DNA of 64,000 nucleotides from Candidatus Multivoradales bacterium (GCA_965248925.1 CBDFLE010000006.1:4512001-4576000), one strand, 5' to 3'; counted from the first letter of the stretch, positions 24,854-39,894 are shown. Made by a program: numbers and translations. The notes: a model not told the origin generated them from the sequence alone.

Positions 24854-24989
24854 TCTACCGAGCGCTAGATACTATTGCCGAGGCGTGGCGAAAAGTCGCC
24901 GCGCCGCGGCGTGAATGCTCGCGAGTCACGCCCATCCTACGACAAGAGAGAACGTAGAGCCGGCAGGCCTTCCCGGCGCGAGGATCGAG

Positions 24990-27188
24990 ATGACTAACAA
25001 AACTGCCAGCACAGCCGACACCGTGAACCCAGTCAAGGCGGTCAACAGCGAATCTCCCGGCCGGGTAGAGATCGAAGATGGCGTTGCTTGGATCCATCTC
25101 GACGATCCAACGAAAGGCGTCAACACCCTGTCGAGCCGTCACTTCGAGTGGTTCGAAGAGACTTTGAAGGCGCTTGCTGAAGAGAACTTGAAGGGCGCGG
25201 TCTTCGTCTCCGACAAGCCGGGCTACTTCATCGTTGGTGCCGACATCGAGGAACTGAACGGGCTCTCCGATCCAGCAGCGGTGCGGGCGATGGTCAGCCG
25301 GGGCCATCGTTTGATGAGCCGTTTTTCTCAGCTTTCTTTTCCGGTGGTGGCAGCGATCGACGGAGTCTGCCTGGGCGGTGGCCTGGAGCTCGCCCTGGCC
25401 TGCGACCTGCGGGTCGCGACCGAAGCCAAACACACCAAACTCGGCCTGCCGGAGGTGCAACTCGGCCTGATTCCCGGTTTGGGTGGCACCCAGCGCTTGC
25501 CGCGGTTGATCGGCGTGCCCGATGCCCTGGAGATGATTCTCACGGGCCGCCAAGTGGTGGCCAAGAAAGCCAAGCGCTTGGGCTTGGTCGACGAACTCTG
25601 CCATCCGTTGGTGCTGCGCCAGGCAGCTATGAAGCTGATTTCCTGGGGCAAACCGTCGCGGCCTGGCTACCGTGGCCCAAACCGTAGCGTGGTCAAGAGC
25701 AAGAAGAGCCTGAGCAAGCGAGCGGGAGATTTTCTCGCCCACACTCCGGGTGCCCGCCGGTTGGTTTATGACAAAGCCCGCGAGAGCGTTTTGAAGAAAT
25801 CCGGCGGCCACTATCCGGCGCCACTCCGCGCTATTGAGGTGGTGCGTGATGGCCTCGATCTGTCGCTGGCCAAGGGCTTGGAACTCGAAGGCAACGCCTT
25901 CGCCGAACTGGTGGTGACGGATGTTGCCAAGGGTTTGATCTCAATTTTCTTTGCCAAGAACGATGTCGAGGGGCGGGCCAAGAAGACTGCCAAGAAGGCT
26001 CGCCAAGTCGAGCGGATCGGTGTCTTGGGGGCCGGTTTCATGGGTTCTGGCATTGCCCAGCTGCTATCCCATCGCGGCTATCAAGTGGTGTTGAAAGACC
26101 GTGATGCGGCCTCGGTGGGCCGCGGCCTGAAGCATTGCCATGGTCTCTTCGACGGTCTGCGCAAGCGGCGCAAGTACACTGAGGTCGAGGTTAAGACGGC
26201 GATGAGCCGCATTCAGCCGGCGGTGGATTACAGCACCTTCGGCAAGTTGCCGCTGGTGATCGAGGCGGTCTTCGAGGATGTGAAGGTCAAGCACCAGGTC
26301 ATCCGCGAGGTCGAAGTGGCGGCCTCCGACGGGGTGATCATCGCTTCCAACACCTCGACCCTGCCGATCACCCAGTTGGCCGCGGGCTCGAAGCAGCCCG
26401 AGAACATCGTCGGCATGCATTTCTTCAGTCCGGTACACAAGATGCCGCTACTGGAGATCATCCGCCACCCAAAGATCTCGGCCGAGGCGTTGGCGACGGT
26501 GGTCGACATCGGCAACAAGATGGGCAAGACGGTGATCGTGGTGGGTGACGGGCCGGGCTTCTTCACCAGCCGGGTGCTGGGTCCCTTCGTCAACGAGGCG
26601 CTATGGTGCTTATGGGAAGGTGCCCGCATCGATCAGATCGACCAGGCGCTAACTGGCTGGGGCTGGCCGGTAGGGCCGTTGGCCTTGCTCGACGAGGTGG
26701 GTATCGATATCGCTCACCACGCTGGCCAGGTGATGATGGCAGCCGCCGGCAGCCGCGCCCAGCCGTCGCCGGTATTCAAGCATATGGTCGAGACTGGCCG
26801 CACCGGCCGCAAGGGCAAGCGCGGCTTCTACGACTACCGCAAAAAGCCCAAGCGGGTCGACGAGTCGGTCTACGAGATGATCGCTTGGGACGAAGAGAAA
26901 ATTGCCAACCAGGAGATCGTCGAACGCTGCTGGATGCAGATGCTCAACGAGGTAGCTCGCACCATCGAAGACGGGGTGATCGAGAACCCGGTCGATATCG
27001 ACCTGGGAGTGATCTTCGGTTTCGGTTTCCCCCCCTTCCGCGGCGGCATCCTGCGCCAGGCCGACAAGCTCGGCCTAGACCACATCGTGGGTCGGCTGAA
27101 GCACTACGCCGACCGCCATGGCGAGAGGCTCGAGCCAGCCCAGTTGCTGGTCGACATGGCGGCCCGGGGGAAGCGGTTTTACGAGTGA
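24990..27188 (+). CDS. fadJ: fatty-acid oxidation complex alpha subunit (enoyl-CoA hydratase / 3-hydroxyacyl-CoA dehydrogenase)
   Basis: GADI, CLGGGLELALAC, GLPEVQLG, GAGFMG, SNTSTLPI, GMHFFSPV, FPPFRGG motifs. Confidence 0.93.
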   Translation: MTNKTASTADTVNPVKAVNSESPGRVEIEDGVAWIHLDDPTKGVNTLSSRHFEWFEETLKALAEENLKGAVFVSDKPGYFIVGADIEELNGLSDPAAVRAMVSRGHRLMSRFSQLSFPVVAAIDGVCLGGGLELALACDLRVATEAKHTKLGLPEVQLGLIPGLGGTQRLPRLIGVPDALEMILTGRQVVAKKAKRLGLVDELCHPLVLRQAAMKLISWGKPSRPGYRGPNRSVVKSKKSLSKRAGDFLAHTPGARRLVYDKARESVLKKSGGHYPAPLRAIEVVRDGLDLSLAKGLELEGNAFAELVVTDVAKGLISIFFAKNDVEGRAKKTAKKARQVERIGVLGAGFMGSGIAQLLSHRGYQVVLKDRDAASVGRGLKHCHGLFDGLRKRRKYTEVEVKTAMSRIQPAVDYSTFGKLPLVIEAVFEDVKVKHQVIREVEVAASDGVIIASNTSTLPITQLAAGSKQPENIVGMHFFSPVHKMPLLEIIRHPKISAEALATVVDIGNKMGKTVIVVGDGPGFFTSRVLGPFVNEALWCLWEGARIDQIDQALTGWGWPVGPLALLDEVGIDIAHHAGQVMMAAAGSRAQPSPVFKHMVETGRTGRKGKRGFYDYRKKPKRVDESVYEMIAWDEEKIANQEIVERCWMQMLNEVARTIEDGVIENPVDIDLGVIFGFGFPPFRGGILRQADKLGLDHIVGRLKHYADRHGERLEPAQLLVDMAARGKRFYE

Positions 27189-27232
27189 AGAACGACGCTA
27201 GGGTAACTAGCACTCGTTCGTTCCACACTTGT

Positions 27233-27568
27233 TCAGCTGTCTAGCGCTCGCTGAATAAGCAGCTCTTCCAGGTCGCGGCGGCCGTCGAGCACGCCGAGAA
27301 CAACGACCTTGTCGCCGACGATGCGGAAGGGTAGCCGGTAGTTTCCGACTAGTAGCTCGCGGTAGTCGAGGCCCAGCTCTCTGAGTTCAGGAAGCTGCCG
27401 GCAGCGGTGAGGGTGGAGGGTCAGGTGGCCCAGCCGCTGGCGCAGGTCCTGGTGCAGATTTTTTGCCTGGCCACGGCCGAAATTCGCTGCGGCGTAGTCG
27501 ATCAGGAGCACCAAGTCGCGGGTTGCTGAGCGCGACCAGGTAACTTGATAGCGCTCAGTCTTCGGCAT
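27233..27568 (-). CDS. RelE/ParE family toxin
   Basis: YQVTWS.SA..DL, R...EL, YRELL, VLGVLDGRRDL; overlaps the antitoxin gene. Confidence 0.88.
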   Translation of the reverse strand: MPKTERYQVTWSRSATRDLVLLIDYAAANFGRGQAKNLHQDLRQRLGHLTLHPHRCRQLPELRELGLDYRELLVGNYRLPFRIVGDKVVVLGVLDGRRDLEELLIQRALDS

Positions 27569-27842
27569 CCGGGGCCTCGAGGCGTTCATTGATCAGCGCA
27601 TCGACTTCAGCGTGACTCAGCACCTCCCCGCGTTGGTATTGCCTCTCACCCTGGGCCAGGAGCTTCAACATCAGCAGCTGATTGCGTTGGCGCTGAAACG
27701 TCTCAACATCCTGCAGCACGCAGGTCGGCTTGCCGTTCTGGGTGACGATCAGCGGCCTTCCACTTTCTCGAACACCGCGAATCAACTCTGCGGCACGAGT
27801 CCTGAGCGCGGTGATTGGCTCGATTCCCTTGGCGTAGTCCAT
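27555..27842 (-). CDS. Phd/YefM family antitoxin
   Basis: IEPITALR..AAELI, P.IVTQNGKP..VL; SD GGAGG. Confidence 0.88.
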   Translation of the reverse strand: MDYAKGIEPITALRTRAAELIRGVRESGRPLIVTQNGKPTCVLQDVETFQRQRNQLLMLKLLAQGERQYQRGEVLSHAEVDALINERLEAPDAED

Positions 27843-27939
27843 GAATGACCTCCGGACTGAATTTAGCATCATATTCGGGGCCAGGGCCACGAAAGTGCCA
27901 AGTGGCACCGTCAAGTGAATTGCTCGATCCAGGTCGCCC

Positions 27940-28230
27940 TGGAGGGGATTGGGCGACTTCCAGCCCAGCCGCTAACACCTGCTATCAGGCAGGCCAAGAC
28001 CGAAGAGGGCGGAGCCTGGATTCATCTCGACGATTCCTATCGAAGATGGAGTGATCTTCGGTTTCGGCTTCCCCCCCTTCCGCGGCGGCATCCTGCGCCA
28101 GGCCGACAAGCTCGGCTTAGACCACATCGTTGGGCGGCTGAAGCACTACGCCGACCGCCATGGCGAGAGGCTCGAGCCAGCCGAGTTGCTGGTGGATATG
28201 GCAGCTAAAGGGAAGCGGTTCTACGAGTAG
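27940..28230 (+). pseudogene. internally deleted relic of a second fadJ copy (5' fragment fused to the 183-bp 3' end)
   Basis: 28048-28230 matches 27006-27188 with about 15 mismatches in 183 bp; 28001-28036 (EEGGAWIHLDD) matches fadJ 25073-25108 (EDGVAWIHLDD). Confidence 0.88.
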
Positions 28231-28248
28231 AGAACGGCTCGGAAACCA

Positions 28249-28590
28249 TCAAGCAGCGAACATCTCTTGCAGAATTCGCAGTGATTCGTCGAGCGCTTGG
28301 GGCGACAGCTGGCCGAGTCTCCGGGTTAATCGCCCGCGATCCACGGTGCGGATCTGGTCGAGAACTACGTGGCCATCCTTGCCTTGGAAGCGGTATTGGA
28401 CGCGGAAAGGGTAGGTGTGACTGCCGCTGGTGAGGGGGGCAACGATGTAGGTCTGAGTGTAGGTGTTGATTTCATTTGGCGACACCACGACGCACGGCCT
28501 CATTTTTCTGATCTCACGGCTGTGGGTTGGATCGAGGGCAACCAAGTACACCTGGCCGCGGCGTACGGCGCTAACCCTCACCACTGCCAT
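28249..28590 (-). CDS. mazF: MazF/PemK family toxin
   Basis: RRGQVYLV.LDP, EIRK.RP.VVVS, VAPLTS, DQIRTVD..RL. Confidence 0.92.
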   Translation of the reverse strand: MAVVRVSAVRRGQVYLVALDPTHSREIRKMRPCVVVSPNEINTYTQTYIVAPLTSGSHTYPFRVQYRFQGKDGHVVLDQIRTVDRGRLTRRLGQLSPQALDESLRILQEMFAA

Positions 28591-28826
28591 TCTTCACTAT
28601 CAAAGTGCGTCGCTACAGGACTATCCAGCAGCTCGTCTTCGTCTCGACTTGCCATGGACTGCGCAGCCTTTGCCCAGCCTTGGCGGGGCCGTTCGGCCCG
28701 GCTGATCACTATTTCCCCTTGCCGCAGCTTGAGTTCGACCTCCTCGGCCAGGCCGGCCTCTTCGATGAAGGCTTTCGGCAGGCGAACTCCCCTTGAATTT
28801 CCAATTCTGACGAGCTTGGCCTTCAT
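28578..28826 (-). CDS. mazE: MazE/AbrB family antitoxin
   Basis: IGNSRGVRLPK AbrB motif and PRQGW...EWQW tail; SD GGAGG. Confidence 0.9.
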   Translation of the reverse strand: MKAKLVRIGNSRGVRLPKAFIEEAGLAEEVELKLRQGEIVISRAERPRQGWAKAAQSMASRDEDELLDSPVATHFDSEEWQW

Positions 28827-28840
28827 TACAGAGCCTCCGC

Positions 28841-28879
28841 GTGTAATCACATGGTAATTACTTTACGCAAAGGCGTCAA
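28841..28879 (-). promoter_or_regulatory. mazEF promoter with overlapping palindromic operator
   Basis: TTGACG-17 bp-TACCAT on the minus strand; GTAATTAC and GTGATTAC boxes flank the -10. Confidence 0.75.
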
Positions 28880-28913
28880 GCAGGTCAACGCGGGGGCAGC
28901 TCAGCGAAATCGC

Positions 28914-29339
28914 TCAGTCCCTGAAAGGGTTGAAGATCCTCAGTCCAGCGATCTTCTGGTCGTGCTGTAAATCTTCGCTGTAGAGGATCTCGCATTCGGC
29001 GTGCAGAGCAGCGGCGACGATCAGCGAGTCGTAGAACGAATAGCGCCAACGCTGCTGGAGGTCGAGGGCTGAATGATAGAGTTCTCGTGAGGGATAGACC
29101 TCGCACAGGGGTTGCAAGACCTCGTCGAGATAGCGATGAGTTTCCGCCGTGGTTAGCGGCTGTTCAAACTTGCGAAGCGCTACGTTGAGCCACTCTTGCA
29201 CCACCTGAAAGCTGATCACTCCTCGGCCTTCCGACAATGCCTGACGCACGAGTTCTAGCGCCTTGGCCTGCTTGGTGGCCGCGGAGGGATCGAAGGTGTA
29301 GGCGAGAATGTTGGTGTCGAGAAAGAATCTAGCGCTCAT
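28914..29339 (-). CDS. vapC: VapC PIN-domain toxin
   Basis: FLDTNIL, SFQVVQE, SFYDSLIVAAA, LYSEDLQH...NPF. Confidence 0.92.
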   Translation of the reverse strand: MSARFFLDTNILAYTFDPSAATKQAKALELVRQALSEGRGVISFQVVQEWLNVALRKFEQPLTTAETHRYLDEVLQPLCEVYPSRELYHSALDLQQRWRYSFYDSLIVAAALHAECEILYSEDLQHDQKIAGLRIFNPFRD

Positions 29340-29550
29340 TCATCTCGTCCCGACTGAATCGCCGGCCGGCCTTGACATGGGCCAGATCCTCCATAAGAGC
29401 ATCAAATCGACTCGACGATCGACCGCTTTGGCCGTAGCGTGCTAGCCACTGGCGAAAAGCCTGATTCAGGCTAGTGTGCTCTCGAACCGCGCGCTCGCGG
29501 GCGGCCCGGATCAAGGCCACGTCAGCGCTCAAAGTGATGTTCTTGGTCAT
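29329..29550 (-). CDS. VapB-type RHH antitoxin
   Basis: KNITLSAD..LI..AR...TSLN..FR.WL and FSRDEMNER tail; overlaps vapC. Confidence 0.8.
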   Translation of the reverse strand: MTKNITLSADVALIRAARERAVREHTSLNQAFRQWLARYGQSGRSSSRFDALMEDLAHVKAGRRFSRDEMNER

Positions 29551-29662
29551 CTTCAGGCTCCTAGACGATTCCAATTTCAAGCAAATCGAATCTGTCACAC
29601 TATTCTAGTGCGCACAAGTGCATCGTCTGCCGCCAGCGTTACGAGAGTACCGACTGGCGTCG

Positions 29663-31903
29663 TCAGGTGAACTGCCGGATCCACGTCGCCCAGAGGGGGT
29701 AGGCGACCTCTAGCCCAGCCGCGGTTTCGGCGATCAGGCGCTCTTCCTTGAGCGCCAGCACGGCTTGGCGGAACTCGTCGCCAAGAGGCATTCCTCGCGC
29801 CAAGCGGCGCAGCACTTCGCGGGCGTCTTCGTCACAGTCGCGGTCGAAGAGGTCGTGGAAGAGGGTCTGATCGTTGATCGCCAGGTCGAAGGCCGTTTGC
29901 AGGTCGCCATCGCTGGCTTGCAGCCGACCCACTTGGTTGAGGTGCTTGCAGAGTTGGTCGCAGACCAGCTGGATCAAGTACGGGTGACAACGGGTTTGTT
30001 CCAGGATCCGCTCGGCCCCGCCGGGTGGGTAGATGTCGGGAAAACCCACCATCGGCTCGGTGATCAGGCTGCGGGCCGCCGGCGGGTCGAGAACGTGGAT
30101 CCGCCGGGGAGTGATGCTGATCAGCCGGTCGGTCCAGTGTTGGCCAAGCCGATGGAGGGGTCTGGCCGAGACCAGCAGCAGGCGGATGCGGTCGAGCTGA
30201 TCGCTCGCGGCGCGCACGAAATCCAGGAAGTCGGTGTTGGCCCAACCTTCTTCGATGGCATCCTGCAGCCGCTCGACTTCATCGACCGCTACCAGCACTC
30301 GTTGGTCAGTGGCGGCGAGCTGCTGGTCGAGGGTGATCAGAGCTTCGAGGACCACTCCCCAACGTCCCGCCGGTACCAGCAGCTCGAAACCCAAATCGGC
30401 GATTACCTCGGCCACCCAACGGTCGGGGTGGTCGCGGTGTTGCGAGCCGCTGAGTCCTTGCATGCTCAGGACTCCGACCTGGGCGTTGGTGCCGAGGTGT
30501 CGGGGCAACATATTGAGCAGCGAAGACTTGCCCATCCGACGCTGGCCGGTGACCAGCAGCGCGCCGCGTCGTTCCCCGAGCAGGTCGTGGTCGATCAGGT
30601 GGACCAGATCCTGCCGGCCCTTGAACAGCTGCTGATCCGCTGCGTGCAGAACTTTTCCCGCGACGAAGGGAGTTGGCACTTGCGGCTTTTCTGCGATCTC
30701 ACGTTCGAGCCGCTGCTGTTCGTCTGTGACCACCCGCAGCCATGCCTCGGTGACGGATGGCGGTAGATTGCTGCCGTCGCTCACTGGTGTTCGAGAGCTA
30801 CCTCGCAGCGGCCGGAGGATGGCTTGCTCGGCACGATTCAACGCCTCTTTTCGACGGTGTTGGCTGCGGCTGACTTGTGCAGCTTCGAGATCTGCGGCCG
30901 CGTCACGGATGCTGAGGATCGGGTCTCTAGGGTGAATCTCGGCAGGCGGTGGCAGAAAAGGTAAGTCTAGGGCGGCCACCTCAGCGAAGGAGTGATGGCG
31001 TGCTGCCACGGTCAGGGTATCGGCTTGGGCTTGCAGCAGCGCGCGGCGGGCGACGGACTTCTGGCCAAGGGTGTCGGCTGCTCGGGTGATCAGCGCTTCG
31101 GCACCGGCGGGGTCCACGCGGGCCAACCGGACCAGGAAGCCCTGCAAGGCTGGGAGCGGAAAGTAGATGAAATCGTGGTGTAGGTATGGGAGTGCACGGC
31201 GAACGTCCCGGCCCTGGCGCTGCAACATCCGCAAGCCGAACATCCACAGGCTTTCAAAGAGATAGATCGGCAGCCGTAGATAGGTCGGTACGAAGGCGAC
31301 AAAGAAAGGGATCCCAGTAGTGAAGCCTGTTAGGATGCTCTCCTCAGCAACGCCGCCAGCAACGCCGAAAGCAACGCCGACAGCAACGCCGCCAGCAACG
31401 CCGCCAGCAACGCCGCCAGCAACGCCGCCAGCAACGCCGCCAGCAACGCCGAAAGCAACGCCGACAGCAACGCCGCCAGCAACGCCGCCAGCAACGCCGC
31501 CAGCAACGCCGACAGCAACGCCGACAGCAACGCCGACAGCAACGCCGAAAGCAACGCCGCCAGCAACGCCGAAAGCAACGCCGCCAGCAACGCCGACAGC
31601 AACGCCGCCAGCAACGCCGACAGCAACCTTTCCGAACTCGATCTCGAACCCCAGGCCCTTTAGCAAGAGCGAGCTGAAGACCGCGAGTGCAGGTCCCACC
31701 GCGAGCAGAATGAAGAGATATCTAGCAAATAGCACTGCCGCCATCTGCTGACCCGATCGCCAGCTCCGGAGTAGCTTCCATCCTGATATATCCGGATCGA
31801 TCTTGAGATCGCGGAGCAGCCGATGGAGTTGCAGTGGCTGCATGAAGAAGAGCCAGGTGAACCGCCAATAACCTGGCAACATTGGGTCTTTCAGCTCAGG
31901 CAT
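29663..31903 (-). CDS. membrane-anchored STAND-like P-loop ATPase with VAxG-repeat TM region
   Basis: PF.AG...FKGR, Walker A GQRRMGKS, Walker B VAVDE, HPYLIQ (GxP-like) motif; hydrophobic N-terminus; ATG 31903 overlaps the upstream stop. Confidence 0.8.
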   Translation of the reverse strand: MPELKDPMLPGYWRFTWLFFMQPLQLHRLLRDLKIDPDISGWKLLRSWRSGQQMAAVLFARYLFILLAVGPALAVFSSLLLKGLGFEIEFGKVAVGVAGGVAVGVAGGVAFGVAGGVAFGVAVGVAVGVAVGVAGGVAGGVAGGVAVGVAFGVAGGVAGGVAGGVAGGVAGGVAVGVAFGVAGGVAEESILTGFTTGIPFFVAFVPTYLRLPIYLFESLWMFGLRMLQRQGRDVRRALPYLHHDFIYFPLPALQGFLVRLARVDPAGAEALITRAADTLGQKSVARRALLQAQADTLTVAARHHSFAEVAALDLPFLPPPAEIHPRDPILSIRDAAADLEAAQVSRSQHRRKEALNRAEQAILRPLRGSSRTPVSDGSNLPPSVTEAWLRVVTDEQQRLEREIAEKPQVPTPFVAGKVLHAADQQLFKGRQDLVHLIDHDLLGERRGALLVTGQRRMGKSSLLNMLPRHLGTNAQVGVLSMQGLSGSQHRDHPDRWVAEVIADLGFELLVPAGRWGVVLEALITLDQQLAATDQRVLVAVDEVERLQDAIEEGWANTDFLDFVRAASDQLDRIRLLLVSARPLHRLGQHWTDRLISITPRRIHVLDPPAARSLITEPMVGFPDIYPPGGAERILEQTRCHPYLIQLVCDQLCKHLNQVGRLQASDGDLQTAFDLAINDQTLFHDLFDRDCDEDAREVLRRLARGMPLGDEFRQAVLALKEERLIAETAAGLEVAYPLWATWIRQFT
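31346..31627 (-). repeat. coding 12-bp tandem repeat, 23.5 units (GTT GCT [GGC/GTC/TTC] GGC = V-A-[G/V/F]-G)
   Basis: directly visible as cagcaacgccgc-type units on the + strand. Confidence 0.97.
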
Positions 31904-33293
31904 CGACCACGTATCTCCTCCAAGATTCGCCAACTATGCGGTAGCTGGCGTCGATTTGCACCAGCAAGCCCCGGCTGGCGAGTTCCACCGCCAGACGCCG
32001 GGGTGGACCGCTGAGGCTTGCCTTTCCGAGGCCCCCTGCGGCGCGACGTAGCAGCTCCTGCTCGGCTTCGCTGCAGTGCGACCACCAGCTCTCGTAGTGG
32101 GGCCACATGAGTTGGTCGAGGTCGTCCTGGAGGTTCTCTAACGGGGTGCCTCGCCAAAGCAAGTCGCCGGCGCCTTGCAGTGCTTGCGGGAAGCCCCCTG
32201 CCTGCTCTCGAACTAACGCCGAGGCTTCTCGGTCCATCCCAAGGGCCAGCAGGTTGGCTGCCGTGCTGCTGTCGAGCTGACCGACCCACACCTTGGTGGC
32301 GTCGTTTAGAAAGGCCGAAGTCCGGCCGCTATGGCGGAAAGCCTGATGAAGATCTTGGTGGGCGACGCTGATCCAGATCAACTGGCCTTTCTGGCCCAAG
32401 GTTCGTAGCTGGTCGAGAACACCGTCGTCGAAACGGTACTTCGGCGCGGTGAGTGCCGTCGCCTCATCAACCAGTAGAACAGCGCTACCGAGCAGCTCAA
32501 GTTGCCTTTCGATCGAGCGGCCACGCAGCTCCTTGATGACCTCGTCACGGCCCAGCTGCTTCGCGGCTGTCTTGACGAACTCTTCGGCCGAACGACCGGC
32601 CAGACCCTGGGCGTTGAGTCGCGCCACCGGGCGGTCTTGCCACAGGGGGGCATGCCGCTCAGCCCAGGCTAGGAGGGAGGTCTTGCCCATCCGGTGCTCG
32701 CCCAAGATCTGCAACGACTGCCCCTGACGCAGAGCTTGCTCGATTTGGCGGCACCCGGCATCGCGGCCGAAGAAGTCGTCGTCGTGGACTATCGGTGGTC
32801 CAACGATAAAGGGTGAGCACTCCATAGCCGCGGCTTGTGGTGGCTCGCCCACCTTGCCGATGAAACGCTTGCGGAGGTGCGGATAGTCGGCCAGCAGCTG
32901 GCATAGCTCGGTGGCTCCCCAGCTCGGAACAATCTCGAGGCGTCCACCAGCCCGCTGGCGCAAGGCTCTGTCGGTGCGGTCAGAAATGTCGCAGGTGGCG
33001 ACCAGCTGATAGCGGTCGGCGGCAGGCTCAGGAGAGTCGATGACAACTTTGTCCAGCTCAGCCTTCGCAGCTGTCGGGCCAAAGTCCCGCACTCGCTTGC
33101 ATTGGGTGATGCATTGTCGACCTTCGGGGTCGATGCTGCTCAGGTCGACTCCACGGTCGTGGCCGCCAGCGCCGGTGTGGCGGACTCGGGTATGACCCTC
33201 GGCACGCAGCAGTGCGAAGCAGAATTGCTCGAAATACTTTGGCTCCAGGCTTTGCAGCCGGAAGAGAATCCACTGCTGGTCACTCTCAGGCAT
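31896..33293 (-). CDS. Mrr-type PD-(D/E)XK nuclease fused to a STAND-like ATPase
   Basis: FEQF...L, D.GVD, QCKR (Mrr_cat pattern); SPF..GPP...FFGR, GEHRMGKT, LLVDE, GGFP motifs. Confidence 0.82.
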   Translation of the reverse strand: MPESDQQWILFRLQSLEPKYFEQFCFALLRAEGHTRVRHTGAGGHDRGVDLSSIDPEGRQCITQCKRVRDFGPTAAKAELDKVVIDSPEPAADRYQLVATCDISDRTDRALRQRAGGRLEIVPSWGATELCQLLADYPHLRKRFIGKVGEPPQAAAMECSPFIVGPPIVHDDDFFGRDAGCRQIEQALRQGQSLQILGEHRMGKTSLLAWAERHAPLWQDRPVARLNAQGLAGRSAEEFVKTAAKQLGRDEVIKELRGRSIERQLELLGSAVLLVDEATALTAPKYRFDDGVLDQLRTLGQKGQLIWISVAHQDLHQAFRHSGRTSAFLNDATKVWVGQLDSSTAANLLALGMDREASALVREQAGGFPQALQGAGDLLWRGTPLENLQDDLDQLMWPHYESWWSHCSEAEQELLRRAAGGLGKASLSGPPRRLAVELASRGLLVQIDASYRIVGESWRRYVVDA

Positions 33294-33511: not shown

Positions 33512-34951
33512 TTACTGCGGCGGTCCTGGCCAGGTCATGAAGTAGCCGTCGGTCCAGATCACGTCACGGTGGAATTCGTCCGGGGTGAATGCACTGATCG
33601 TATAGCGGTGGCCGGAGAATTTGCCGTCTTTGCCGGTCGCGCGAATACCAGCGACACTACGGTTGCTGGCGAAGCGGGTGTCGAGGCAGAACTGGTAGTC
33701 GTTTCCCCATGGGTCGCTCCGCGGTAGCTCGGGCAGGCTGTTGGGAACCAACAGTGATTGCAAAGCCTGGTAGCTGATCGACGGACAGGCGTTCCAATCG
33801 GTGGTGGTTTCCTCTTCTTCGTCGGGGGCGGTCAGCTTGCCAGCCGGTTGGTGAGTAGTTAGCCAAGTGAGCATCACTCTGCCGGTCGTTCGAAGGTCGG
33901 CGATCGTCTGTGCTTGCTTTAAGCGATCTTGCTCTAATTCGCTGAGCTCAGGCTCGCTGTTACTTGCGCTGCCGGAGCCGGCTGCTGGCAGCGCGTCGGT
34001 AAGGCTGAACACGGCGAGGATTGCCAACACGTCGGCGGCGAGGAAGGCACGTTTGGGCGAGGGGGGGAGGTAATTCGAGATCATCTGGATCCTTCTTTCG
34101 AGGGTTTGTTTGGAGGAGATCCCCAACGCAGAGGCCGGTAGGGGATTCTGGGTGCTCAAGCGGAGCAAGGTTTGACCGTAGCGCGGCCGCTCAGCATGCT
34201 CGAGTTGACGCAGAACGGCGGCGTCGCAAGCGAGTTCACAATCGTCAGCGAAGCGGCGCACGGCCCAATGCAACAGCGGGTTAAACCAGTGGATAGCGGC
34301 CAGCCAACCGGCTAGCTGCAAGCTCAAGGGATCGCGCCGGTGAAGATGAGCCAGCTCGTGTAGCAGAACGTGGTGGATTTCTTCGTCGCTCAGGCCCTGG
34401 CCGAAACCTGGTGGCAGGACCACTCGTGGCCGCAGAACTCCGCAGGCCACCGGGCCACCCAGACCGGCGGCTTCGATCAGCTTGACTCTGCCGCTGCTCC
34501 TCAGAGTGCCTTGGCAGGTGGCGAAAATCGAAGCCACGCGGCCCTCGCGGAGCGTCCGTCCTCGGCGCAGAGCGAGCCGCAAGCCTCGGCTAGCCCACAG
34601 ACGACGGCCGGCGAGGATCAAGAAGCTCACCGTCCACAGGCCGACAACCCACGCCATCGGGGAGATTTCTTGAGCCGGCTGCGCCGCTACTCCAGTGGTG
34701 ATGGGTACCGGCGCCGAAAGAGCCGGCAGGGCGGCCATCGGTGAATAATCGCTGGTGAGTTGGAAGAGGCTCCAGGGGCTGGCCGGCAGGGATGGGAGCA
34801 GCAGGCGTAGGAACACCAACGACCACAGGCCATGCCGCCAGGCCGCCGGCAGGTGAGACCTGAGCAGGTGCTGGCTACCTAAGACCAAGATAACAACGGC
34901 GGTTGCCTCGGCTGAAGGCCACAGGACGAGGTCGGGCAGAAGATGGGTCAT
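33512..34951 (-). CDS. BlaR1/M56 family membrane protease-sensor with a GspG-like C-terminal domain
   Basis: LHELAH...D, WFNPL, ELACDA, LERRI motifs; C-terminus resembles the 54068 protein. Confidence 0.85.
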   Translation of the reverse strand: MTHLLPDLVLWPSAEATAVVILVLGSQHLLRSHLPAAWRHGLWSLVFLRLLLPSLPASPWSLFQLTSDYSPMAALPALSAPVPITTGVAAQPAQEISPMAWVVGLWTVSFLILAGRRLWASRGLRLALRRGRTLREGRVASIFATCQGTLRSSGRVKLIEAAGLGGPVACGVLRPRVVLPPGFGQGLSDEEIHHVLLHELAHLHRRDPLSLQLAGWLAAIHWFNPLLHWAVRRFADDCELACDAAVLRQLEHAERPRYGQTLLRLSTQNPLPASALGISSKQTLERRIQMISNYLPPSPKRAFLAADVLAILAVFSLTDALPAAGSGSASNSEPELSELEQDRLKQAQTIADLRTTGRVMLTWLTTHQPAGKLTAPDEEEETTTDWNACPSISYQALQSLLVPNSLPELPRSDPWGNDYQFCLDTRFASNRSVAGIRATGKDGKFSGHRYTISAFTPDEFHRDVIWTDGYFMTWPGPPQ

Positions 34952-35349
34952 TGGTCTCGACTTCTGCCTTGGCCGCGGCTATCGCTGCTTTCGAGCAGGC
35001 GATGGAGCTTGGCGATTTGCTCTTCACTGAGTTCAACCTCCTGCGCGAAATGGGCCAGCAGCGAAGCGCCGTCGCCGCGAAAAACCCGGCGCAAGAAAGA
35101 GCGGCTCTCGTGTCGAATGATCTCGCTGCGCCGCACCGCCGGCCGGTAGAGATAGCGCGCGCCGTCTTCCTGATAGGTCACGAAGCCCTTCTTGACCAGC
35201 CGGCCCAACAGGGTCTTGATGGTCTTCGGCCGCCAATCGGTGAGCCCGCAGAGCCGTTCGACCACCTCGCTCGAGGAAGTGGGCGACCGGTCCCAAAGAA
35301 CGTTCATGACTTGCCATTCGGCATCGGAGATCTTGGGGTTGTCGGCCAT
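34948..35349 (-). CDS. blaI: BlaI/MecI/CopY family repressor
   Basis: ISDAEWQVM.VLW, TIKTLL.RLVKKG motifs; overlaps the M56 gene. Confidence 0.92.
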   Translation of the reverse strand: MADNPKISDAEWQVMNVLWDRSPTSSSEVVERLCGLTDWRPKTIKTLLGRLVKKGFVTYQEDGARYLYRPAVRRSEIIRHESRSFLRRVFRGDGASLLAHFAQEVELSEEQIAKLHRLLESSDSRGQGRSRDQ

Positions 35350-35409: not shown

Positions 35410-35547
35410 GCGAAGTCAAGAAGAGACTGCCCTCGCCTGGACCCGTGGGGAGTTGCTGGTTGCCGGCCAATGCTGGTTCGAGTCGCGATAGGATCAGGGA
35501 CGCTTAGATCTACAGCTTGCTGGCTCACTAACCGAGACCTCAACCCC

Positions 35548-37815
35548 GTGACATTTTCGTCGAGATATCCCCTGCTGCTCCTGCCATTCCTCGCCCTGGC
35601 CTGTGGGCCACCGACCGAGGAACGGGTGGTCTACGATCTAGTCGCCGATTTGTCAGCCGCCGAGGTACTGGTGGAACCGACTCGGTTGGAGCTGGGTGGG
35701 CCGGCGGCGCGAGCCTATTTCCGGGGTGGCTTTTCTCGCGGTGCGGTCGATGCCACCGACAACATGCCCTACGTCTGGGGGCTGGGCGAAGCCTCTGAGA
35801 TGCGTATTCCCTTAGTGGCGAAGCGTGATCTGAGCCTCACGTTCGAGGTCAAGCCGCTGGATTGGGAGGTCGCCCCGGCGCAGCACATCAAGGTGCTGCT
35901 CAATGGTGTCGAGGTCGACGATCTGGAGTTCTGGCCCGGTCGGCGTGAGCATTCGGTGGTGCTGCCGGCGGCGGCACAGCGGTTGGGCGAGAATGTGCTG
36001 CGCTTCGAATATCGTTGGAGCCGGTCGCCGCGGGAGTTGTTTCCGGGCAATTCCGACAATCGGCAGCTGGCGGTGGCTTGGTATTGGCTGCGGCTGGGGG
36101 ATCGCGGGGAGGCCGAGGTGCCGCGGGGTGAGGATGAGCTGCTGGTGCTGCCGGTGGGTTCGCAAATCGACTATCACCTGATGTTGCCAGCCGCGGCCGA
36201 GCTGTACGCACAGTCGTGGGCGGTTCGCGGTGGGCAGGATGCGCGGCTGGAAGTAGCGGTAGAGGAAGCCGACGGCGCGCGGACGGAGCGACGTCCTGAG
36301 ATCGGGTCCGGGCCGTTGCGGCTGCCGCTGGCGATCAGCAAGTCCAAGACATCGCGCCTGGTGCGCTTGTCGCTGCGGGCGGTGCCGGGAACCGCCGGTG
36401 AGGCCGCGGCGGTGGTCCTGCGGCAGCCACGGATCCTTGCCCAAATGGTGATCGAGGATAAATCGCCGGTGGCAGCCGGCGCCGAAACGGTGGTAGGCGC
36501 AAGCACCAACGGCGAGCGCCGCCCTGATCTGCTGGTCTACCTGATCGATACTCTGCGCGCTGACTATCTGGGGGTCTATGGGCAAGAACGCGATCTCAGT
36601 CCGAGGATCGACGCCTTTGCCGCTGGCGCCACGGTTTTCGCCAATGCCCAAGCACAGTCGTCGTGGACGCGCTCTTCGGTGGCCTCGATCTTCACCGGTC
36701 TGTGGCCGCTGGCTCACGGCGCCAATCGGCGTACTGACAAGCTCAGTTCCGAGGCGCTCACCCTGGCCGAGTTGCTCGGTGCGGCGGGTTATCGCACTGC
36801 TGCGTTCGTGACCAACCCCAACGTCACTCCGACTTTTGGCTTCGATCAAGGTTTCGATCATTTCGAGTATCTGGGTGAGGCGGCTACCGCCTCAGAGGTC
36901 AGCGAGCAAGTGTTGCAGTGGCTCGACGATTCGAACGCTGGTGGTGAGTCTGGTGCTGAGGAAGACCGGCCCCTACTGCTCTATGTACACACCATCGATC
37001 CGCACACTCCTTACGTGCCGGCAGCGGAGTTGCGACGGCGCTTCGCACCTGGCATCTCGGCGGCGGCGGCACGGCGCTCTTCGCAAACGGTCAACGATTT
37101 GCAGGCCGGCCGTCGGCCGGTGACCCCCGAGGCACTGACCGAGTTAACCAGCCTCTATGCCGCCGAGGTTGCCGCTGCCGATGCCGGATTTGGCGAGCTG
37201 CTCGACGGTCTAGAGGGCCGTGATCGTCTTCGCCACACCGCGGTAGTGATGCTGTCGGACCACGGCGAAGAATTCTACGAGCATGGCAACTTCGAGCACG
37301 GCAAGGCTCTCCATGTGGAGTCCTTGCGGGTACCGTTGATTATCCGCTTGCCGGCGCAGACCGTGGGCCAGCGCTGCTCAGAGATGGTGCAACATATCGA
37401 TCTGCTACCGACTTTGCTCGAGCTGGCGGTGGCCAGCGGGCCGGGGGGGCTTGGGGGGCGCAGTCTGGTGTCGTTGCTCGACGGCGGCGGCAATGCTAGC
37501 GATGGATCCCTCGGCGAGCGCCCTCACCATGCCTACCTGCACCTTGATGGGCCCGCGCGGGTGGCGATCCTCGAGGGCGGCTACAAGGCCATTCATCGGG
37601 TTCAGGATGGGCGGCTAATATGGCCTCGCTTGTTCGATCTCGCGGCGGACCCCGAGGAACTTGCCGAGCTGGAGGGCGAACGGCCGTTGCGCCTCGGCTA
37701 TATGGCGGCCCAGACGCGGGCTCGCTTGGCGCGCCCTGGCGGGCTATCGGCTGAGCGGGCGGACCTCGATGAGGAGCTGCGCGACAGTCTGCGCGCCCTC
37801 GGCTATTTGGATTGA
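35548..37815 (+). CDS. lipoprotein sulfatase-like hydrolase
   Basis: lipobox LALAC; IDTLRAD, SSWTRSS (Ser-type), DPH.PY, SDHGEE, LRALGY end. Confidence 0.85.
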   Translation: MTFSSRYPLLLLPFLALACGPPTEERVVYDLVADLSAAEVLVEPTRLELGGPAARAYFRGGFSRGAVDATDNMPYVWGLGEASEMRIPLVAKRDLSLTFEVKPLDWEVAPAQHIKVLLNGVEVDDLEFWPGRREHSVVLPAAAQRLGENVLRFEYRWSRSPRELFPGNSDNRQLAVAWYWLRLGDRGEAEVPRGEDELLVLPVGSQIDYHLMLPAAAELYAQSWAVRGGQDARLEVAVEEADGARTERRPEIGSGPLRLPLAISKSKTSRLVRLSLRAVPGTAGEAAAVVLRQPRILAQMVIEDKSPVAAGAETVVGASTNGERRPDLLVYLIDTLRADYLGVYGQERDLSPRIDAFAAGATVFANAQAQSSWTRSSVASIFTGLWPLAHGANRRTDKLSSEALTLAELLGAAGYRTAAFVTNPNVTPTFGFDQGFDHFEYLGEAATASEVSEQVLQWLDDSNAGGESGAEEDRPLLLYVHTIDPHTPYVPAAELRRRFAPGISAAAARRSSQTVNDLQAGRRPVTPEALTELTSLYAAEVAAADAGFGELLDGLEGRDRLRHTAVVMLSDHGEEFYEHGNFEHGKALHVESLRVPLIIRLPAQTVGQRCSEMVQHIDLLPTLLELAVASGPGGLGGRSLVSLLDGGGNASDGSLGERPHHAYLHLDGPARVAILEGGYKAIHRVQDGRLIWPRLFDLAADPEELAELEGERPLRLGYMAAQTRARLARPGGLSAERADLDEELRDSLRALGYLD

Positions 37816-37947
37816 GCGAAGGGCGCTGCTAGCTGCATGACTAGCAGGGGATCTACAGCGCGATAAGATGCACCGTGGATTCTGATTTCAAGCCACGTTA
37901 CGACAGGCCCGGGGCGGTGGGGAGTAGCGACTTGGGAGGACAGCCTA

Positions 37948-39894
37948 ATGCACTTCAAGCGGTCGATTGTCGAGAACCTCATCTACGGCGCCCCCGATAC
38001 GCCGCGCTACACTCAGGACTCGCCGGTATTGCCGGATGTTTGGTTCGGCTATGGGCGCCGTCCAGGCGAACCTATCGACCTCCTGCTGACCCCGCATGTG
38101 GATTCCGGCGCTGGTGCTTTGGCGGTGTGCCTGCGTGATCGCCTGACGGCGGAGCGCAAGGGCGGGCGGCGCGGCGCGGCGGACATCGCCTACACTCAAA
38201 GCTACGTTGTTGCCCGCTTGTATCTCGACGAGTTAGTGCGCCTCGCCCTGCCCTTGACCGGCTGGTGGCGGGACTATGTCTGGGCGTCGACCCGGCAGCT
38301 GTCGCACTCGAAAAATCATCAGACCCCGCCCCTCGATCGCTTGGCCGAGCCCAAGTTGCGAGTGCTGATGGAGCGGGCGTTGGCCACCTTCGAGCAGGCC
38401 GAGGAGGCGGGTGTCAGCCAAGCGTCGGAGGAACGACGTGCCGATCTACCGATCGATCTGCTGTGGATGATGCGCATCGTCGGCAGCCTGGCATGGCTGG
38501 CCGATTGCCAAACTAGGGATCTTGGCAAGAGTTCTACGGAAGATCTTACCGAGTTGCCCGAGCCGTCTGAGATGGTCGACGCCATTGTCGAGCTGCTCGG
38601 AGATTTGCCGGAGGTCAGCAAAGACGATCCGTTGCTGCTCTGGCAGGTCAACTTGAACCGTGCCGCCAAGACCGCGGTCAGCCGTTCATCGTTGGCGATC
38701 AAGGCCGATGCCGCGCGATTGTTGTTCGAGGTGCATTGCAACAAACTGTCTTGGGCGGTGGTCGATAGCGGCATCGATGCTCGTCACCCGTCGTTTTGGC
38801 ACCGCCTACCGCCGGGGCAGCATGATCCTCGGGACGAAGACGACGAAGACCTCGAACTCGAACATTGGGCAGAGCGTACGCGGGTCAAAGAGACATTCGA
38901 CTTCACCCGCGTGCGAGTGTTGCTCAATCCCAGCCGGCTGGCGCGGCCCCAGAGCTTGCCGGAGCCGGTGCGCAAGCTACTCGAAGAGGGGCCGCCGGAA
39001 CGTTGTAAAGAACTGCGCCAACAGCTCAAGGAACTCAAGCGTCGCCTGCTGCGGGGCCGGTCGATCGATTGGCAGTTGTTAGAATCCTTCCTACGGGTGC
39101 CGCACGACGATGCCTACTTGCCGCCGCGTTCCGAGCACGGCACTCACGTTGCTGGCATCTTGGCGGCCGACTGGCCGCAGGAGGGGTTGCAGGGCATTTG
39201 CCCAGACCTCAATCTCTACGATTTACGAGTTCTCGACCCACAAGGGGAGAACGATGAGTTCACCGTCCTTGCCGCGTTGCAATTCGTCGACTATCTAAAT
39301 GCCAAGAAAGAGTTTCTATCGATCCACGGCGCCAATCTCAGTCTGGCGATCCATCATGAAGTCGCCAACTATGCTTGTGGCCGGACGCCGATTTGTGAGG
39401 AGTGTGAGCGGCTGGTGAGTTCAGGAGTAGTGGTGGTGGCGGCGGCGGGCAACGAAGGACATCAGCAATACCAGACTGCCAAGGGTTTGCGCGATGGCTA
39501 CAACACAGTGTCAATCACCGATCCGGGCAATGCCGCCGGGGTGATCACCGTCGGTTCGACCCACCGCGATCAGCCACACAACTACGGTGTCAGCTACTTC
39601 TCTAGCCGCGGTCCCACCGGCGATGGCCGATTGAAACCGGATCTGGTGGCGCCGGGGGAGAAGATCGTTGCGCCGACGCCGCACCGCAATCGGCGGCGCA
39701 AGGATGGCACCTCGATGGCGGCACCCCATGTTAGCGGTGCGGCGGCGATGTTGATGGCTCGCTACAGCGAGTTGATCGGCGAGCCCCAACGGATCAAGAA
39801 AGCTCTCTGTGACACTGCCACCGACCTCGGTCGCGAACGTTATTTCCAAGGCGCCGGCATGCTCGACGTGCTGCGCGCTCTCCAATCAATCTAA
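37948..39894 (+). CDS. S8 subtilase family serine protease, no signal peptide
   Basis: catalytic triad motifs VDSGID, HGTHVAGI, GTSMAAPHVSG; oxyanion AAGN. Confidence 0.92.
   Translation: MHFKRSIVENLIYGAPDTPRYTQDSPVLPDVWFGYGRRPGEPIDLLLTPHVDSGAGALAVCLRDRLTAERKGGRRGAADIAYTQSYVVARLYLDELVRLALPLTGWWRDYVWASTRQLSHSKNHQTPPLDRLAEPKLRVLMERALATFEQAEEAGVSQASEERRADLPIDLLWMMRIVGSLAWLADCQTRDLGKSSTEDLTELPEPSEMVDAIVELLGDLPEVSKDDPLLLWQVNLNRAAKTAVSRSSLAIKADAARLLFEVHCNKLSWAVVDSGIDARHPSFWHRLPPGQHDPRDEDDEDLELEHWAERTRVKETFDFTRVRVLLNPSRLARPQSLPEPVRKLLEEGPPERCKELRQQLKELKRRLLRGRSIDWQLLESFLRVPHDDAYLPPRSEHGTHVAGILAADWPQEGLQGICPDLNLYDLRVLDPQGENDEFTVLAALQFVDYLNAKKEFLSIHGANLSLAIHHEVANYACGRTPICEECERLVSSGVVVVAAAGNEGHQQYQTAKGLRDGYNTVSITDPGNAAGVITVGSTHRDQPHNYGVSYFSSRGPTGDGRLKPDLVAPGEKIVAPTPHRNRRRKDGTSMAAPHVSGAAAMLMARYSELIGEPQRIKKALCDTATDLGRERYFQGAGMLDVLRALQSI

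Follow-up and report, generated by a model that had tools for sequence, protein, structure and literature searches.

Do two overlapping genes, each encoding an ATPase that resembles the signal transduction ATPases with numerous domains (STAND), one with a nuclease domain at its N-terminus and the other with a long membrane repeat, form the two halves of a single system, and what would such a system do? The question is raised by positions 29663-33293 of a 64,000-nucleotide (nt) stretch of DNA from Candidatus Multivoradales bacterium (GCA_965248925.1, CBDFLE010000006.1:4512001-4576000), the whole of which we refer to as the window. We put a probability of roughly 60% on the reading that the two gene products, here called A and B, are subunits of one conflict system that is switched by nucleoside triphosphate (NTP), resembles the NLR proteins (nucleotide-binding proteins with leucine-rich repeats), and most likely serves in anti-phage defence or abortive infection.

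An earlier note, made from the sequence alone, had described two overlapping minus-strand genes with STAND-type motifs in both, an Mrr-like nuclease at the N-terminus of the first, transmembrane helices and a long glycine-rich hydrophobic repeat in the second, no C-terminal TPR or WD40 sensor in either, and toxin-antitoxin (TA) modules next to the pair. All of these descriptions were borne out, with the nuclease activity standing as a prediction. Both open reading frames (ORFs) lie where they had been placed. Gene A, which encodes the Mrr-type nuclease joined to a STAND-like ATPase, occupies 31896-33293 (-) and reads as an ORF of 465 amino acids (aa). Gene B, which encodes the membrane glycine-zipper STAND-like ATPase, occupies 29663-31933 (-), with 756 aa if translation begins at the TTG at 31933 and 746 aa if it begins at the ATG at 31903. 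At the junction (31896-31933 (-)), our reading of the sequence favours the ATG at 31903-31901 as the start of B, 11 nt after a GGAGGAG motif (31921-31915); from this ATG, B overlaps the last codons and stop codon of A (31898-31896) by 8 nt. Together with the upstream GGAGGAG, this overlap is the layout that would be expected if A and B were translationally coupled.

The two genes form a conserved, co-oriented pair

If A and B act together, their homologues should occur together. A protein search that scored 7,999 candidates gave 521 homologues of B at E ≤ 0.001, the best with 45-47% identity. Species-representative genomes scanned with a profile built from 12 B sequences yielded 80 B loci, from Thermoanaerobaculia, Holophagales, Myxococcota, many Nostoc, Microcoleus and Calothrix genomes, Chloroflexota and Thiomargarita. 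Partners of the A type were sought in all translated ORFs within about 6 kb on each side, using the ATPase module of A, that of B, and then a hidden Markov model of the A-type proteins themselves. Twelve of the 80 loci had less than 1.2 kb of sequence upstream of B and were not judged, which left 68 assessable loci. An A-type ATPase gene was present in 63 of these, upstream and on the same strand in 62 and divergent in one (L065); among the 63 partners are three truncated fragments (L030, L044, L057) and two genes that run into a contig end (L032, L052). By longest-ORF calls, the two genes overlap or lie at most 60 nt apart in 26 of 58 pairs, and they abut or overlap in 9 of the 11 loci of the closest clade. 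A conserved, co-oriented and often overlapping arrangement is a property of the family. The window's own 8-Mb genome contains neither a second B nor a second A-type module, and with single copies of both genes and the pair kept in 63 of 68 loci, chance adjacency becomes negligible.

Among relatives, the distribution of the pair is patchy. Only five places outside the window's own genome, in 40 relatives, cover most of B, the best being 44% identical, and the nearest relative genome with a B (also 44% identity) likewise has an A-type gene immediately upstream of it. When 401 genomes of the phylum were sampled, the A-type profile scored 433 bits in the window's genome and no more than 108.5 bits in 12 of the 400 others. 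A scan of genome contigs with B alone gave 48 pattern matches, none of which was confirmed.

Five loci of the same phylum (L093, L094, L097, L101, L104) contain weaker A-type matches (about 90-108 bits) in frames of 600-1500 aa that lie beside a second ATPase gene. The similarity of this second gene to B is confined to the ATPase part, and the membrane part is missing, so other, related paired-ATPase arrangements seem to exist.

A and B share a STAND-type ATPase module

The C-terminal modules of A-type proteins and of B align end to end in a profile-profile comparison (hhalign; 306 columns, probability 99.8%, E 2.6e-29), which makes the two modules paralogous. Both contain an FxGR motif before the P-loop, Walker A and Walker B motifs, a GxP-type lid motif and a winged helix. 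The module of A (aa 160-465; 31899-32816 (-)) has FFGR, the Walker A sequence GEHRMGKTS (32676-32702), the Walker B sequence LLVDEA (32457-32477) and a GxP-like GGFP..LQ motif, while that of B (aa 425-756; 29666-30661 (-)) has LFKGR, GQRRMGKSS (30521-30547), VAVDEVE (30272-30292) and the GxP-like CHPYLIQL, which reads (G/C)HPYL.QL across the family. Both proteins thereby conform to the general P-loop NTPase pattern (GxxxxGK[ST] and hhhhDE), and both have the helical lid and winged helix; in the structural models, helix bundles are followed by a β-hairpin winged helix in A as well as in B. All 30 of the aligned B-type sequences have the same residue in four columns of B (G468, K469, D551 and E552). 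In the 58 A-type neighbours, the Walker A motif is intact in nearly every case, the exceptions being L040, where it is eroded, and L030, which is truncated. The only DNA-level similarity between the two genes is a 46-nt segment, 72% identical, at the Walker A regions (30516-30561 and 32671-32716), and it fits an old paralogy, not a recent duplication.

In Pfam, A matches AAA_22 at aa 190-317 (33.8 bits, cut-off 27), with weak matches to nSTAND1 (14.9 bits, under the cut-off of 27.1) and to nSTAND6. B falls slightly under both cut-offs, with 26.7 bits for AAA_22 and 22.7 bits for nSTAND1, and NCBIfam gave nothing meaningful for either protein. Several relatives do pass nSTAND1, namely P0060 (33.9 bits) and the A-type proteins of L013 (35.3 bits), L008 (32.4 bits) and L022 (28.0 bits), and 25 of 80 A-type representatives match it at E ≤ 1e-4. 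A sequence search of the PDB with A gave no match. By structure (Foldseek against the PDB), the neighbours of the A module are 2qen and 2fna, followed by plant NLR resistosomes, CED-4/Apaf-1, MalT (8bob) and ORC/Cdc6; those of B are led by 2qen (E 1.5e-8, target TM-score 0.65), with ORC2/Cdc6, NRC4/ZAR1/Sr35 and CED-4 among the top matches. Both proteins end right after the winged helix, with no C-terminal TPR, WD40 or leucine-rich repeat (LRR) sensor and no match to a repeat family in Pfam.

We also considered a TniB- or ORC-like role in a mobile element or in replication. This was rejected, as the TniB matches are only weak, there is no transposase nearby, and one of the two partners is a membrane protein.

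The N-terminal domains of A-type proteins vary

The N-terminal domain of A (aa 13-107; 32973-33257 (-)) matches Mrr_cat (PF04471) with 33.4 bits against a cut-off of 21. It contains GVD50L and Q64-C-K66, which we take to be the catalytic D...(E/Q)xK of Mrr nucleases; both the Pfam score and the motif place A among the Mrr proteins. In the AlphaFold2 model of A, the predicted local distance difference test (pLDDT) exceeds 90 for aa 160-465 and is below 60 in the Mrr domain, which is poorly modelled because the alignment has no depth there, so it is the Pfam match and the motif that suggest an active nuclease.

The same genome encodes a second protein with this domain, an 803-aa Mrr_cat, protein kinase and FGE-sulfatase fusion (L091, 3963-6374 (-); G000:C6, about 1846962-1849373). 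Its N-terminus is 49% identical to the Mrr domain of A over 163 aa, with GVDL and QCKR kept in both. One Mrr effector domain in two different architectures within one genome is the pattern that would be expected of a shared cassette.

A word-based homologue search with A retrieved seven proteins, and one with its ATPase region alone retrieved four. Six relatives of A that the former retrieved resemble it in the ATPase part alone, and their N-termini are a protein kinase in two, SIR2_2 in two, TIR/SEFIR in one and PNP_UDP in one. The ten A-type genes that lie beside the closest B homologues show a similar mixture (SIR2_2 in six, TIR/SEFIR in two, Pkinase and PNP_UDP_1 in one each). We then searched exhaustively with a profile of the A-type module alone. 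This gave 9,873 representatives at E ≤ 1e-3, of which 2,767 remained at E ≤ 1e-10 and 122 at E ≤ 1e-30. In a Pfam scan of the best 80 representatives, the N-terminus was SIR2_2 in 19, PNP_UDP_1 (a PNP-type phosphorylase/nucleosidase domain) in 8, TIR_2 in 7, Pkinase in 3, CHAT and Metallophos in 2 each, and EAD1, DUF4062 and SLFN-AlbA_2 in 1 each; the single Mrr_cat was gene A itself. Several of these swapped domains match effector models of the defence-system database PADLOC (bSEFIR, 155.9 bits; the PD-T4-6 kinase, 259.9 bits; the PN-superfamily effector of CBASS, 199.1 bits), and the SIR2 domain of an A-type protein matches PADLOC's Argonaute-associated (Aga) SIR2 model. The earlier note had suggested looking for a constant upstream ATPase with swappable effectors, and such an ATPase is what we found, with SIR2, TIR/SEFIR, PNP-type, kinase, CHAT and Mrr versions.

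In Cyanobacteria and Chloroflexota, the partners have a different build. They are proteins of about 350-460 aa with an intact P-loop and no recognisable enzyme domain in Pfam. Their N-terminal 70-100 aa or so look like a helix-turn-helix (HTH) when the sequences are read, and Pfam gave no match there. With effector-less partners in most of the family, activation of a nuclease cannot by itself account for the family. In one partner, from Thermoflexales, we found TCAD9, a 'ternary complex associated domain' that is kinase-like.

In Nostoc and its relatives, additional ORFs lie between the A-type and B-type genes (L020, 5459-5863; L026, 5415-5819; L045, 3861-5546; L037, 4647-5258; L061, 4857-5210). 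When the sequences are read, they resemble PIN/VapC toxins with partners, a PD-(D/E)xK-like protein and a GIY-YIG protein, and they are not kept across loci.

B is a predicted membrane protein with a glycine-zipper repeat

Upstream of its ATPase module, B has three distinct parts. The N-terminal part (31646-31876 (-)), delimited by alignment, model and hydropathy, combines a conserved motif (WLFFMQP, with an invariant P33) and a first long hydrophobic helix (aa 63-93). It is followed by a glycine-zipper repeat of the form (GVAx)n at aa 103-196 (31346-31627 (-)). None of these 94 residues is charged, and all are G, V, A or F; 23 successive glycines among them keep a strict period of four. On the DNA level this is a tandem repeat with a period of 12 nt (Tandem repeat finder: 31345-31627, 23.6 copies, 92% match). 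Short-read contigs from four runs of one sample confirm the flanks of the repeat; they end on either side of it (31374-31598), with small repeat-internal contigs in between, so the exact copy number rests on the assembly. Terminator-like matches inside the repeat were discarded as repeat artefacts. Across 69 B homologues, the glycine-rich hydrophobic region varies in length from 0 to 287 aa, with a median of 144 aa. Tandem GxxxG in a hydrophobic segment makes this region a glycine zipper by sequence, and insertion into the membrane is predicted; none of the Gly-zipper families of Pfam matched B. The repeat also matches the hydrophobic heads of two α-pore-forming toxins, MakA and NheL1, weakly (E 0.008); these matches are of low complexity and near noise, and we treat them as leads, not as evidence.

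The third part, at aa 221-420 (30674-31273 (-)), is an all-helical and presumably cytoplasmic domain, modelled as helices of high pLDDT, which is a candidate coupling or sensor domain. It has no Pfam match and is the least conserved portion of B, with a mean pairwise identity of 0.27 as against 0.39 for the ATPase. A search of the ESM Atlas with residues 1-425 of B returned only clusters of 'hypothetical protein', the best score (0.88) being under the significance level. The AlphaFold2 model of B, made from a 30-sequence alignment, has a pLDDT of 83.5 and a predicted TM-score (pTM) of 0.70, and consists of N-terminal helices, the hydrophobic helix 63-93, the glycine-zipper helices, the all-helical 221-420 and, at 430-756, the ATPase with lid and winged helix; confidence is low in the glycine-zipper part, at about aa 145-206.

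Predicted complex and proposed mechanism

The earlier note had also proposed that the two proteins form a hetero-oligomer. We predicted the complex of full-length A with residues 240-756 of B, and obtained scores of 0.47, 0.32 and 0.49 against 0.00 for the best control, which is a weak pass. Of 80 solved complexes, 58 attain the mark of this test, as do 2 of 110 mismatched pairs, and a pass at 0.60 or less is wrong in the majority of cases, save where binding was likely beforehand. At least 67% of contacts are shared between the runs, and the partners have a pLDDT of at least 78. Since oligomers of AAA+ and STAND proteins are common among solved structures, a weak pass may also reflect likeness to these. 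On this prediction, the proposed hetero-oligomer has weak support (0.47 against 0.00). The interpretation in the earlier note is thus upheld for the pairing and the swappable effectors, while sensing at the envelope, a pore and activation of the nuclease by B would be further steps of a hypothesis.

A working model can be put together along these lines. B would be the constant subunit, held in the inner membrane by the hydrophobic helix and the period-4 glycine-zipper repeat, with its helical domain and its STAND-like ATPase facing the cytoplasm. A would be a soluble paralogue of the ATPase module of B, and its N-terminus would serve as an exchangeable effector slot, occupied here by the Mrr-type nuclease. 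A trigger would release the ATPases of A and B from an off state, the two modules would co-assemble in an NTP-dependent manner, and the resulting clustering of N-terminal domains would switch the effector on, with cleavage of DNA by the Mrr domain as the outcome in this bacterium. In relatives, the outcome may be depletion of NAD+ or nucleotides by SIR2, TIR or PNP-type domains, or phosphorylation by a kinase. Clustered glycine-zipper helices of B may, in addition, disturb the membrane. As to what perceives the trigger, the candidates are the helical domain of B and the membrane domain itself.

A bolder version, which we think unlikely but worth stating, is that B is a membrane-resident bacterial counterpart of a helper-NLR resistosome. 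ATP-driven co-assembly with A would then bundle the glycine-zipper helices, variable in length as they are, into a pore or lesion, while also switching on the enzyme of A, and either the membrane domain or the 200-residue helical domain of B would detect an infection event close to the envelope. Such an NLR pair would have two weapons, one in each protein, and no repeat sensor.

If A and B do form a conflict system, they would stand for a widespread and uncharacterised family, given 521 B homologues (E ≤ 0.001) and 122 A-type representatives (E ≤ 1e-30), and for a split, membrane-tethered, NLR-like bacterial system that does without the repeat sensors by which Avs, bNACHT and eukaryotic NLR proteins are defined. 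One could then ask how a STAND switch senses without a repeat domain, and whether bacteria had both the logic of paired sensors and helpers and NLR outputs directed at the membrane. The effector slot would offer a natural experiment on how a single ATPase scaffold can turn on nucleases, NADases, nucleosidases or kinases.

Comparison with known systems

We searched for named systems with PADLOC-DB v2.0.0 (2023). None of five A-type proteins had a match in its ATPase module, three of three B homologues had no match at all, and only effector domains were recognised. For A itself there were weak N-terminal matches of the restriction endonuclease type (PDC-S73, 3.7e-5; LmuA, 5e-4), and for B nothing usable. 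The expectation that the pair would match no named system was thus upheld for this release, in which no model matched either ATPase module or the B homologues. In the literature, we found no description of a glycine-zipper membrane STAND protein paired with an effector-bearing one, with the limit that supplementary catalogues of STAND proteins (589 clades) and eLife source data may list the family. The portions available to us of PMC7159879, PMC13581612, a ParA preprint (10.64898/2026.10.19.760177) and PMC8195603 do not describe the pair.

Among described themes, the nearest is a mobile operon of two genes whose products are both nSTAND2 NTPases, predicted to form a hetero-multimer, with one of them fused to variable effectors (Kaur et al., 2021; PMC8195603). 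In the parts of that paper that we could consult, the NTP-binding motifs are eroded in the module that carries the effector, and most of the effectors are GT4 or HEPN. The A-B pair resembles this operon in that two STAND NTPases are encoded together, one of them with a variable effector. It departs from the operon's defining features, so far as those parts give them: A and B both keep Walker A and Walker B; the A-type effectors are Mrr, SIR2, TIR, PNP-type, kinase and CHAT domains; and B would be embedded in the membrane by its glycine-zipper repeat, a kind of partner that the same parts do not mention. Neither A nor B matches Pfam nSTAND2 (PF20702) at E ≤ 1. The nSTAND2 cut-off is passed by the A-type neighbour of L011 (27.7 bits, cut-off 24) and by two of the 80 representatives.

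With the nSTAND1-centred, Avs/AVAST and bNACHT proteins, A shares an N-terminal effector placed before a STAND-type NTPase with a winged helix, and Avs proteins with Mrr-like N-termini exist. Unlike these single chains, A and B have no C-terminal TPR, WD40 or LRR sensor, the function is split over two paralogous ATPases, and one of these, B, is predicted to be membrane-embedded. Nor did the ATPase modules match any STAND, Avs or NLR model of PADLOC, which sets the pair apart from the Avs/AVAST single-chain type.

Plant sensor and helper NLR pairs (NRC2/3/4, ZAR1, Sr35) offer a functional analogy, in that two paralogous NLR-type ATPases would act together. By the same analogy with coiled-coil NLR resistosomes, one partner would supply an N-terminal module that inserts into the membrane upon oligomerisation. 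The structural match to the plant resistosomes covers the NTPase core only, with TM-scores of 0.2-0.3 on the target and no homology shown at the N-terminus, and unlike the plant proteins, which are soluble and then insert, B would be integral to the membrane from the outset. Structurally, both modules come closest to the archaeal proteins PABY2304 (2qen) and SSO1545 (2fna) of the ATPase_2 family (PF01637), with E values of 1.5e-8 and 1.6e-10 and target TM-scores of 0.58-0.65; Pfam ATPase_2 is itself matched by relatives of A and B only under its cut-off. Unlike A and B, these archaeal proteins are stand-alone soluble ATPases of unknown function. The pair is best filed as an NTPase-switched conflict system with exchangeable effectors, set apart by its membrane glycine-zipper STAND partner and by the missing repeat sensor.

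Alternative explanations

Several observations weigh against a conflict system made of A and B. Both proteins remain under the nSTAND1 cut-off (PF20703, 27.1 bits), neither has an identifiable sensor, and the Mrr domain has no confident model (pLDDT below 60). Five of the 68 assessable loci (L017, L054, L063, L082, L083) have no A-type gene within about 6 kb, where L017 is a B fragment only and L063 had less upstream DNA. The weak pass of the complex could come from paralogous AAA+/STAND modules that dock by likeness to solved oligomers. Most family members, from Cyanobacteria and Chloroflexota, pair B with an effector-less A-type ATPase of roughly 360-400 aa, whose short HTH-like N-terminus is no less in keeping with a regulatory switch than with an immune one. 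It is this effector-less majority that keeps alive the main rival, a non-immune, membrane-linked switch that would tie the state of the membrane to transcription, to development or to programmed cell death in bacteria that are filamentous or social, with the effector versions, Mrr included, as a derived side branch. Most B homologues do come from Nostoc, Microcoleus, Calothrix, Chloroflexota and Thiomargarita, where the A-type partners have the short HTH-like N-terminus and no enzyme domain, and STAND ATPases include transcription regulators, with MalT (8bob) among the structural matches and AfsR among those named in the literature search. We nevertheless consider such a switch rather unlikely. 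In the window's own clade the partners carry classic death effectors that match PADLOC effector models, the distribution is patchy with low identity among relatives, TA and nuclease genes lie in or beside the loci, and the HTH itself is a reading of the sequence to which no Pfam match corresponds.

The effector-less partners can also be read in another way, with B as the sufficient effector, an ATP-gated glycine-zipper pore, A as an accessory sensor or amplifier, and the Mrr domain as dispensable for the core function. No candidate effector other than the glycine-zipper region is shared by the whole family, the structural neighbours include helper-NLR resistosomes, and the repeat has its weak resemblance (E 0.008) to the heads of MakA and NheL1. 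Those PDB matches are low-complexity and near noise, the repeat ranges in length from about 40 to 290 residues across homologues and is modelled at low confidence, and effectors fused to A would be redundant if B were sufficient, so that this seems to us quite improbable. That the pair is simply a member of the described nSTAND2 operon (PMC8195603) is very improbable: the shared theme of a mobile two-gene STAND operon with variable effectors on one product, and the nSTAND2 scores of the L011 protein and of two representatives in 80, are set against the lack of any nSTAND2 match in A and B and, going by the parts of that source at hand, against intact Walker motifs in both proteins, other effectors and a membrane glycine-zipper partner. 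Finally, that A and B are independent genes which happen to be neighbours in a TA-rich islet is barely credible. It draws on nothing beyond the general clustering of such genes, and is already contradicted by the neighbourhood counts, with the pair kept across several phyla, as well as by the paralogy of the modules and the overlap of the reading frames. A two-subunit conflict system remains our preferred explanation for the pair.

Genomic neighbourhood of the pair

A Pfam scan identified three TA modules directly downstream of the pair (27233-29598 (-)), which we regard as context of the system. They are a ParE/PhdYefM module (27233-27914), a PemK/MazE module (28249-28850), and a module of a PIN protein and an 89-aa ORF that has no Pfam match (28914-29598). 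A 199-nt direct repeat, 90% identical, is found at 26996-27194 and 28038-28236 of the window. It duplicates the 3' end of a FadB-like gene (24915-27188), and a 59-aa C-terminal fragment (28051-28230) is still encoded in the second copy. The ParE/PhdYefM module lies between the two copies, as if it had inserted at the end of the FadB-like gene with a duplication of the target.

On the other side, directly upstream of A and on the same strand, lies a gene pair for a BlaR1-type M56 peptidase and a BlaI-type repressor (33512-35349 (-)). Beyond it, on the opposite strand (35470-39894 (+)), a 781-aa ORF (35470-37815) is followed by a gene for an S8 subtilase.

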